DNA from: a virus | Direction: 5' to 3' (one strand) | IMG/VR virus record: IMGVR_UViG_3300045988_122031 | Span: 29,757 to 93,756 of that record | DNA length: 64,000 nt | Shown: positions 29,830-30,377 of the stretch, piece by piece | Position numbering within the stretch: position 1 is the first letter of the stretch | Layout of the letters: each line of letters opens with the position of its first letter | The notes under the pieces: generated by a model | What the model saw: only the letters and a program-made list of their open reading frames with translations | Databases searched by the model: none | What the model was told of the DNA's origin: nothing | Translations under genes and position numbers: made by a program

Positions 29830-29993
29830 CCTTTCACTCCTTTACTTCACTTTCTTGAAGATTATCTTTCATTTGTTGAATATAATATACTACTTCTTGT
29901 ACATAATGTCAATACAAAATCTTCAACTTCTTGAACATTTTATTTTACATCTAGTATATAATATGCTACAATATAGACATGGAGGTATATCAT
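29830..29993. promoter_or_regulatory. Divergent promoter region between the minus-strand operon and the plus-strand XRE regulator
   Basis: Plus strand has TTGAAC (29931-36), an 18-bp spacer and TATATA (29955-60), and a second TTGAAG...TGaaTATAAT near 29862-29900. RBS GGAGG lies at 29981-85. Confidence 0.45.
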
Positions 29994-30197
29994 ATGATAA
30001 GTTATAAACCGCTTTTCGTTACTTTAGCGAAAAAGGGTATGACAAAATCTGATTTGCGAACCGCATTAAATATGGGTCCTGGCACGATTGCCAAGATGGC
30101 AAAGAATCAATATCTCAGTCTCGAAAACATTGACAAAATTTGCTTATATCTTGATTGCAAAGTTGAAGATGTTATCGAGGTCATACCAAACGATTAA
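29994..30197 (+). CDS. XRE-family HTH transcriptional regulator (Cro/CI-like), the only convincing plus-strand gene
   Basis: MISYKPLFVTLAKKGMTKSDLRTALNMGPGTIAKMAKNQYLSLENIDKICLYLDCKVEDVIEV is a classic HTH_XRE. GGAGG lies 8 nt upstream; the alternative ATG at 29979 overlaps the RBS. Confidence 0.75.
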   Translation: MISYKPLFVTLAKKGMTKSDLRTALNMGPGTIAKMAKNQYLSLENIDKICLYLDCKVEDVIEVIPND

Positions 30198-30200
30198 TCA

Positions 30201-30236
30201 AAAAGACTTTGACTATTTAGGTTAAGGTCTTTTTTA
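30201..30236. terminator. Probable bidirectional intrinsic terminator
   Basis: AAAAAGACTT-(14 nt)-AAGGTCTTTTTT, with an A-run before and a T-run after, between the HTH gene and the tRNA. Confidence 0.4.
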
Positions 30237-30238
30237 GT

Positions 30239-30377
30239 GAAAACAACAGGAATCGAACCTGTGTCGGCAATTTATATGTGATGAAAAATTAAAATGTAAA
30301 TAAATAAAATACTTATATGGAGGTAGAAAAATGAATGTTTATGTATTGCCTGCTCTACCAACTGAGCTATGTTTCCA
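30239..30377 (-). tRNA. tRNA(CAT)-like gene (Met/Ile2 anticodon) carrying an apparent 68-nt insertion at the anticodon stem
   Basis: Minus strand: GGAAACA-TA-GCTCAGTTGGTAGAGC-A-GGCAA-TACATAA, then a 68-nt insertion, then TTGCC-GAC-ACAGGTTCGATTCCTGT-TGTTTTC-A. The acceptor stem pairs 7/7 (one G-U), and the D-arm and T-arm are canonical. It is too long (139 nt) for a standard tRNA. Confidence 0.55.

Follow-up and report, generated by a model that had tools for sequence, protein, structure and literature searches.

XRE1, a predicted local repressor between divergent promoters in a temperate phage of Anaerostipes hadrus

Does a small regulator gene standing alone on the strand opposite its neighbours mark the lysis/lysogeny switch of the phage that carries it, or does it control something more local? 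We considered this question for XRE1, which encodes a predicted helix-turn-helix (HTH) protein of 67 amino acids (aa) on the plus strand of a 64,000-nt stretch of virus DNA (positions 29,757 to 93,756 of IMG/VR record IMGVR_UViG_3300045988_122031; hereafter, the window). A sequence-only reading had seen, in the back-to-back arrangement of this gene and a minus-strand gene block, a lysogeny-type switch architecture in a temperate or pseudolysogenic phage. The element is a temperate phage of ~160 kb, present as a prophage in the gut bacterium A. hadrus. For XRE1 itself, we consider it rather probable that the protein is a local, self-regulating repressor of an internal promoter, P_L, and the main lysis/lysogeny control of the phage is probably located at the head of the early gene cluster, just past the window.

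The XRE1 gene and its divergent spacer

The region from 29830 to 30240 consists of a 164-nt spacer, the plus-strand open reading frame (ORF) of XRE1 and a hairpin, so that the gene has a promoter and a terminator to itself and forms a monocistronic unit. The protein starts with MISYKPLF and ends with IPND, and a GGAGG motif lies seven nt 5' of the start codon. An ATG further upstream in the same frame (29979) would yield a 72-aa reading, which we rejected because this codon is GTG in most relatives; the 67-aa form is therefore taken as the gene. XRE1 scores above the curated gathering thresholds of two Pfam families, HTH_26 (E 1.2e-14, 54.7 bits, cut-off 22) and HTH_3 (25.1 bits, cut-off 23), and thus belongs to the XRE / Cro-C1 HTH superfamily. 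The HTH domain spans residues 10-65, that is, nearly the entire protein, with no oligomerisation or self-cleavage domain. Across 64 related loci XRE1 is 91-100% identical, and the median ratio of nonsynonymous to synonymous polymorphism (pN/pS) is 0.12 for 21 unique orthologous coding sequences, indicating that the gene is under purifying selection. In IMG/VR, ~59 loci with a 91-97% identical XRE1 lie on contigs of up to ~170 kb with the same gene order, and the identical protein is present on many public contigs.

The initial description of a lone plus-strand Cro/CI-like gene with its own promoter and terminator was borne out, with Pfam, the promoter scan, the hairpin fold and purifying selection all in agreement. 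In the ORF map of the 64-kb window, there is no second plus-strand ORF that has family support or lies clear of minus-strand genes, and gene callers run on related contigs place XRE1 alone on the plus strand, save for one dubious ORF of 34-46 aa. We also considered a small plus-strand ORF lying over a neighbouring tRNA-like gene (a Shine-Dalgarno sequence and an ATG at 30332) and rejected it, given that neither its frame nor its length is conserved (L058). Being the only convincing plus-strand gene is, however, a property of the window and not of the phage: the same phage genomes hold at least two further small XRE genes on the opposite strand, outside the window.

Two promoters, P_R for XRE1 and P_L for the divergent genes, stand back to back in the spacer and are the two best promoter matches of a 3-kb region in a consensus scan (Table 1). 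We expressed conservation of the spacer as the mean per element over 34 unique versions of the locus. By this measure, the -35 and -10 boxes of P_R stand at 1.00 and 0.98 and those of P_L at 0.995 and 1.00, respectively, so that the hexamers, at 0.98-1.00, are set off from the leader beside the 135-aa gene, which reaches only ~0.80. The predicted main operator, the 22-bp dyad O3, is located between the two -35 boxes, 5 and 4 nt away from them and ~51 nt 5' of both predicted start sites; its core is unchanged in 13 aligned relatives, and mean conservation over 29916-29941 is 0.966. A motif search of the window found exact copies of the O2-type motif at O2 and O3 only (O2 conservation, 0.876), and in the third site, O1, the half-site TTGAAGATT complements the left half of O3 exactly. 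Searches of the full 64 kb show that the O-type motif is essentially confined to 29845-29941, within the divergent spacer. At the other end of the gene, the hairpin at 30200-30234 folds with -15.4 kcal/mol (z -4.5) as plus-strand RNA compared to -5.9 kcal/mol for the minus strand, and should therefore end the XRE1 mRNA well but leftward transcription poorly; base changes in this hairpin among relatives preserve pairing.

The explanation we favour is that XRE1 would act as a small dimeric HTH repressor within a self-contained cassette with two back-to-back promoters. The protein would bind O3, midway between the two -35 boxes, and also the weaker sites O2, in the P_L spacer, and O1, in the P_L leader, such that P_L would be repressed and its own promoter, P_R, tuned. 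The sequences establish the gene and its conservation, the geometry of the promoters and operator-like sites, the homology of the cassettes and the prophage state; from these we infer that XRE1 binds O1-O3, that it represses instead of activating, and when it does so. P_L, in turn, would drive an accessory block encoding a papain-like hydrolase, a lipoprotein, and membrane and other small proteins, followed by a hypervariable stretch. The cassette would either silence an otherwise constitutive P_L in the lysogen or let it fire only briefly once the phage has infected or been induced, working apart from the main lysis/lysogeny control of the phage, and the same type of cassette would regulate TnpB in IS605-family elements.

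Table 1. Features of the window, numbered from its first nucleotide, with the evidence for each
Feature	Position	Strand	Basis
XRE1, 67-aa HTH_26 (Cro/C1-type) DNA-binding protein, predicted repressor	29994-30197	+	Pfam, PDB relatives, conservation
P_R, XRE1's own promoter, TTTACA-17-TGcTACAAT	29944-29972	+	consensus scan, 10/12 plus TG extension
P_L, strong divergent promoter, TTGACA-17-TATATT, for the 135-aa gene and those after it	29912-29884	-	consensus scan, 11/12
O3, 22-bp dyad AATCTTCAA-CTTC-TTGAACATT, predicted main operator	29918-29939	.	read from sequence, conservation
O2, partial copy of O3 right half (ACTTCTTGTACAT), in P_L spacer	29892-29904	.	direct-repeat family D3
O1, CTTCA-N6-TGAAG, in leader of P_L transcript	29845-29863	.	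repeats D1 and I24
Intrinsic terminator of XRE1 mRNA, 15-pair stem then U run	30200-30234	+	folding
Gene 1 of P_L unit, 135 aa, predicted papain-like cysteine hydrolase	29422-29829	-	structure model
Gene 2, 95-aa predicted lipoprotein	29134-29421	-	signal peptide ending ...LGSMTGC (read from sequence)
Genes 3-5, 131, 180 and 154 aa, tightly packed	27718-29120	-	ORFs with overlapping or abutting ends
tRNA-like gene, ~67 extra nt in anticodon loop, convergent with XRE1	30238-30376	-	Rfam tRNA, 42.5 bits against gathering score 29, full-length model
Two identical 23-nt palindromes, TTGCACCCTGTCAATAGGTGCAA (TTGCACC-N9-GGTGCAA)	1785-1807; 44012-44034		exactly two copies in window
316-aa Phage_integrase-family protein	45182-46132	-	conserved R, H-x-x-R, H...Y motifs by eye
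Recombinase-like 342-aa ORF, flanking the MazF-like gene	42467-43495	-	

Homologous cassettes and the link to TnpB

Among proteins of known structure, the closest relatives of XRE1 are 3TYR/3TYS (1.4e-9, residues 2-65), which we take to be VanU of the vanG cluster, followed by CylR2 (2XIU, 6.7e-4). The NCBIfam VanU model (NF000090) detects XRE1 at 46.1 bits (4e-12), well below its cut-off of 150, so that XRE1 is not assigned as a VanU equivalog. Closer relatives emerge from IMG/VR, where the nearest non-orthologous group is 52-57% identical to XRE1 and, at all 23 of its 23 loci, is encoded divergently from an IS605-family TnpB gene at a distance of ~155 nt. At least three TnpB lineages are represented, and at ten of the loci a convergent tnpA gene follows downstream. 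One such element, at L074 4730-6605, has the order tnpB (minus strand), XRE paralogue (plus), tnpA (minus) and adjoins an 1836-aa tail-fibre-like gene; an IS605 element of this type sits in the same phage genomes as XRE1, ~100 kb away. No TnpB or TnpA homologue was found anywhere in the 64-kb window.

Aligning the spacers of XRE1 and the TnpB-linked cassettes reveals a single geometry, in which the leftward -35 box (ATGTCAA) is invariant and the other shared elements are a TATAAT block and a rightward TTGAC/TTTACA combined with TGnTAnAAT. Two repeats occupy fixed positions in this frame, but their sequence follows the lineage, with ACTTCTTGWACAT in the XRE1 spacer and TATTTCTAAACAT in the TnpB type. 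In the homologous cassettes of IS605 elements, of Paenibacillus phage Lily and of gut bacteria, the repeats lie at the leftward -10 box or spacer and abutting the rightward -35 box; Lily carries ACTTCCTGTATAT twice, 54 nt apart, and the layout is also found in gut bacterial genomes. Thus, the repeat sequence changes together with the protein, as expected for operator/regulator pairs. The link to TnpB does not extend to all homologues: the best relatives in bacterial genomes (55-60%) are not TnpB-linked, one of them being divergent from small genes that include one for a lipoprotein, and the Lily homologue resides in an accessory region, ~1.8 kb from gp41/gp42, a divergent HTH gene pair taken to be CI/Cro-like. 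Because the homologues keep the layout, XRE1 looks like one copy of a portable cassette comprising a regulator and its promoters.

A precedent from IS605 elements is Arc, a ribbon-helix-helix protein encoded beside tnpB that binds the divergent promoters and represses tnpB, and probably also itself (preprint 10.64898/2026.09.24.754181); the literature mentions an accessory HTH protein of IS605 elements only in passing (PMC10691335). We tentatively suggest, putting the chance at somewhat below even, that XRE1 represents a family, so far undescribed, of HTH_26 repressors 65-67 aa in length, which come in a fixed cassette with two promoters and lineage-specific operators and serve as an HTH counterpart of Arc. 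The phage would then carry the cassette twice, once in an IS605 element and once in domesticated form, gating an accessory block with a possible counter-defence function. If so, a transposon regulatory module has been recruited for the control of phage genes.

Prophage state, main control region and surrounding genes

A. hadrus is an abundant butyrate-producing gut bacterium. The exact XRE1 protein is annotated in its genomes (WP_173774535.1, NSG72419.1) and is present on at least 1000 contigs, the longest of 3.6 Mb; XRE1 variants occur on contigs of 186-258 kb, larger than the phage itself. Most IMG/VR contigs stop 1.6-4.2 kb beyond the endolysin gene, but in permuted contigs this end is joined to an integrase gene (product 429 aa, DNA-binding domain of Tn916 type), and then to the early genes. 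In one class of contigs, the phage homology ends ~190 nt before the integrase gene and the sequence enters host proA, identified by NF001221 at 8.5e-181 and by an exact protein match to A. hadrus. Integrated copies adjoin the 3' end of A. hadrus proA, with attP beside the 429-aa integrase (L202 12400-14314; L192 13228-14522; the ends of L188, L195 and L205). Other relatives encode a different integrase next to tRNA-Trp or show a third junction, and integration modules therefore appear to be swapped within the family. The search of bacterial genomes for a prophage, which the sequence-only reading had set as its own check, thus turned up integrated copies, and these, together with the exact protein matches, the oversize contigs and the phage-proA junctions, support temperate growth. 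A scan of species-representative genomes that yielded no XRE1 orthologue had at first counted against lysogeny and was overturned by the exact-sequence look-ups. When the 6 kb of sequence surrounding XRE1 was compared by blastn to GenBank phages, no relative of this phage emerged, only three short matches that covered at most 8% of the query.

Within the early gene cluster, XRE1 occupies a site ~36 kb from the beginning, well away from attP and the integrase gene. The cluster begins, in relatives, ~2 kb past the right end of the window, and control elements follow ~1 kb further. A candidate immunity region can be delineated there, at L257 6431-7650 (~2.5-3 kb past the right end of the window), with a 78-aa HTH_3 gene that points away from the early genes, a pair of consensus promoters in tandem (TTGACA-17-TATAAT, spaced by 130 nt), TCAAGT/ACTTGA palindromes that are absent from the 64-kb window, and a structured leader of ~750 nt. 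This combination of the 78-aa gene and tandem promoters was detected at ~11 of 38 loci, and L242, which lacks it, encodes an unrelated 82-aa HTH protein in the same place. The region is immunity-like in being allelic among relatives, and XRE1 shows no such variation.

The gene divergent from XRE1, the first of the P_L unit, had been noted as a Cys/His protein. Its AlphaFold2 model (predicted local distance difference test score, 89.6) has as its best fold match in the PDB Josephin-2 (probability 0.94, template modelling score 0.52), the next-best being a C39 peptidase and PaJOS, a bacterial Josephin. With C22, H103 and D114 invariant, the protein is predicted to be a papain-like cysteine hydrolase. 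At the sequence level, it matches phrog_3754, a family with no function assigned, and a PDB sequence search with it gave no match. Its homologues are frequent in phages without an XRE neighbour; one is found in the moron region between the lysin and integrase genes of another prophage, and others reside in early regions or among ArdA, AcrIC5 and Lar genes in anti-defence islands. The lipoprotein encoded by gene 2 shows a weak match to DUF5052 (7e-6, below the cut-off) and matches phrog_2316 at 1.2e-15, whereas genes 3-5 match no family of known function. Transmembrane segments were called by eye from the translations, with no prediction tool: the 154-aa product of gene 5 has N-terminal hydrophobic stretches that read as two transmembrane helices, and 60- and 102-aa proteins have similar N-terminal stretches, but the 131- and 180-aa proteins have none. 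The operon of small membrane proteins, a lipoprotein and a Cys/His protein that had been described thus stands for the latter two and for some membrane-like proteins, but not for the 131- and 180-aa products.

The first five genes of the block are syntenic in all relatives (L001-L005, L181-L186), and the part left of gene 5 is variable, with TnpB insertions or Tad2-like genes in some of them. Two Tad2-like (anti-Thoeris) genes lie at L184 3484-4088, in this variable part. The composition of the variable block hints at a counter-defence island; PADLOC and PHROGs gave no function for the P_L genes, which matched no known anti-defence or defence family.

To the right of XRE1, the tRNA-like gene was detected by the Rfam model only; ARAGORN reported no tRNA, either for the window or for 26 related loci, and no uninterrupted version was found in viral contigs. 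Its ~67-nt insertion is AT-rich, unstructured and nearly invariant in all relatives, and is far too short to be a group I intron. Matching D and T arms occur in tRNA-Asn and tRNA-Phe genes, which does not fix the identity of the tRNA-like gene. What had been taken for several tRNA-like sites hinting at lysogeny comes down to this one locus in the window, a full tRNA-like gene with an insertion rather than an att fragment. In L183, a ~1.55-kb element (10344-11603 plus flanks, corresponding to ~30335 of the window), encoding a 419-aa RRXRR+HNH protein that is IscB-like by its domains, sits inside the 67-nt insertion, where it replaces the pentanucleotide TTTAT; this insertion may be a target for IS200/IS605-type elements. 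Directly 5' of the tRNA-like gene, at 30382-30453, is a 72-nt hairpin with a perfect stem (-27.7 kcal/mol, z -5.8) that some relatives share; in others, its place is taken by a short hairpin that keeps this base (GACTGGCA...TGCCAGT), in the manner of a small palindromic insertion. Further right, at 30507-36818, the cargo is swapped among relatives (L001, L003, L183, L185): the window carries flotillin/SPFH and PspA-like genes, others TerD, a vWA-TerF-like protein and an 874-aa P-type cation ATPase, and NAD-salvage genes (NAMPT, NAD synthase and an isochorismatase-family gene) come after either set.

Other features of the window bear on what had been claimed for the phage as a whole. Each of the two 23-nt palindromes encloses the TTGACA box of a minus-strand promoter, amid ~60 nt of similarity, one 5' of the gene for a secreted 3D-domain protein and the other 5' of a solitary MazF-like toxin gene. 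Their proposed role as operators of XRE1 was abandoned: they are far from XRE1, they have nothing in common with the sites at its own promoter, and the true spacer is N9, a search with the originally given N10 (TTGCACC-N10-GGTGCAA) returning a single match, with one mismatch, inside a gene. The Bro-N (antirepressor-like), MazF and recombinase genes, the first and last of which had been cited as hints of lysogeny, are confirmed as real, but neither the 316-aa nor the 342-aa recombinase is the integrase beside attP. Candidate roles for these two proteins are dimer resolution or regulation by a protein with a recombinase fold; the 316-aa protein was considered as an MrpR-like repressor of the SPbeta type, but a PDB sequence search gave no match and its tblastn matches were ordinary phage recombinases.

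The replication module (4618-15133, minus strand) encodes Pol III alpha, DHH/RecJ-like, primase-like and DnaB-like proteins, two unknowns and a YorF-like protein, an order that presumably resembles yorL-yorF of Bacillus phage SPbeta. Its best database matches are to phiCD211, c-st and Tsamsa at 34-36% identity, and the nearest characterised relatives of the Pol III alpha are those of the large clostridial phages phiCD211 and c-st and of large Bacillus phages. Both phiCD211 and c-st are lysogenic, so that describing this module as virulent-type was not justified.

Competing explanations and known systems

Several observations weigh against XRE1 as a local repressor of P_L. Repressors expressed in lysogeny likewise tend to oppose the lytic genes and to have a promoter and terminator to themselves, so that a maintenance role would fit as well. 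The predicted operators were identified from repeats and conservation in very AT-rich DNA, and among the three sites O1, less conserved (0.81) than O2 and O3, is the weakest. From its position upstream of the -35 boxes of both promoters, O3 could also serve activation in place of repression. On the target side, the block assigned to P_L is provisional in extent and, because the hairpin is a weak terminator on the minus strand, promoters further upstream may contribute to its transcription; the anti-defence flavour of this block comes by association alone.

The first alternative, which goes back to the sequence-only reading, has XRE1 as a CI/Cro-type regulator of the lysis/lysogeny switch, silencing the prophage or committing the phage to lysis. 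We consider this unlikely, even though the phage is temperate, XRE1 opposes the lytic genes from its own promoter and terminator, a dyad separates the divergent promoters and genes for antirepressor-like Bro-N proteins lie in the vicinity. A second regulator is missing, the divergent gene encoding a predicted hydrolase, and XRE1 lacks the oligomerisation or cleavage domain of such repressors. Its operator motifs are local within 64 kb of the early region, and the locus is in the middle of the cluster, distant from the integrase, attP and the early-gene start. Furthermore, the 64 loci show hardly any variation in XRE1 or its sites, whereas the head-of-cluster region exists in at least two unrelated repressor/promoter alleles. 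The nearest homologues reside by TnpB or other cargo rather than phage immunity genes, that of Lily being apart from gp41/gp42. The lysogeny-type switch architecture first proposed for this locus is therefore not supported, with the divergent partner not a regulator, the motifs local, the locus invariant and an allelic HTH region found elsewhere.

The other two alternatives retain control of P_L by XRE1 but assign it a different purpose. XRE1 could be a Cro- or Aca-like temporal brake that operates in lytic growth only, P_L firing first and the XRE1 made from P_R then stopping it, to give a short pulse of accessory or anti-defence proteins, with no role for XRE1 in the lysogen. P_L is near-consensus, its genes are, by their context, reminiscent of early accessory or anti-defence islands, and the logic is that of Aca repressors; this account departs from local repression in timing only, but P_R, by its sequence, needs no phage factor, so that XRE1 should be made in the lysogen too, and we regard a purely lytic brake as unlikely, if worth keeping in view. 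Alternatively, XRE1 might set the level of lysogenic-conversion or superinfection-exclusion proteins made from the prophage, or a signal might derepress them, protecting the lysogen. A lipoprotein and membrane proteins do follow P_L, a homologue of the 135-aa protein is found in the moron region of another prophage, and an XRE homologue in a Selenomonadaceae genome is divergent from small genes that include one for a lipoprotein. Yet the P_L genes, in a long and tightly packed array with at least 14 members, are oriented as the lytic genes, match no known defence or exclusion family, and encode mostly proteins with neither a signal peptide nor a hydrophobic stretch in their translations, all of which makes the exclusion role improbable. 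Local repression of P_L, by contrast with these alternatives, is the explanation we retain.

Placing the window in a ~160-kb temperate A. hadrus phage, with the probable real lysis/lysogeny control just outside it, keeps an ordinary local regulator from being mistaken for a master switch. The link to TnpB suggests that IS605 elements swap small repressors, Arc or XRE, on one promoter layout, and that phages reuse such repressor/promoter modules, which bears on the natural silencing of RNA-guided nuclease genes. The cassettes could also offer compact repressor and promoter pairs for use in Firmicutes.

Comparison with known systems delineates what kind of regulator XRE1 might be. No toxin gene partners XRE1 in an operon, as would be the case for an XRE antitoxin of a type II toxin-antitoxin system (HipB/HigA type); the MazF-like gene lies 14 kb away, under its own promoter. 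The likeness to lambda CI/Cro consists in an XRE-fold protein of a temperate phage and divergent promoters with a dyad between them. The XRE1 locus differs, however, in having one regulator only, the divergent 135-aa protein containing no HTH and no other regulator being encoded within the unit; in the lack of a C-terminal domain for oligomerisation or cleavage and of an evident antirepressor link, the Bro-N proteins being ~22 kb away; in its location, which is not beside int, and with another HTH gene and palindromes at the head of the cluster where the early lytic promoters lie; and in not being allelic, with XRE1 91-100% identical and O3 0.966 conserved among relatives where immunity would vary. 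Aca repressors are small HTH proteins that silence a very strong early counter-defence promoter via inverted repeats located there. Their genes, however, are downstream in the target operon, co-transcribed 3' of a validated anti-defence gene, whereas XRE1 is divergent and the P_L genes in the window include no validated anti-defence gene, such neighbours appearing solely with relatives and homologues.

With Arc, the resemblance is one of role, not of family, because the fold of XRE1 is HTH as opposed to ribbon-helix-helix. XRE1 itself is not inside a tnpB element and, with no TnpA or TnpB beside it, faces phage genes; it is the 52-57% identical homologues, including the paralogue in the same phage genomes, that are divergent from tnpB and hold the position of Arc at all 23 loci. 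A further parallel is with CylR2 (cytolysin repressor 2 of Enterococcus faecalis; PDB 2XIU/2XJ3) and VanU. CylR2 is a 66-aa dimer that represses a divergent operon via a 22-bp inverted repeat. XRE1 is not an orthologue of these proteins, has no adjoining CylR1-like membrane partner and faces phage accessory genes, but it shares with them the format of a stand-alone HTH protein of ~66-75 aa, detectable similarity to the members with solved structures and, as known from the sequence alone, a 22-bp dyad (29918-29939) placed between divergent promoters and facing its divergent target.

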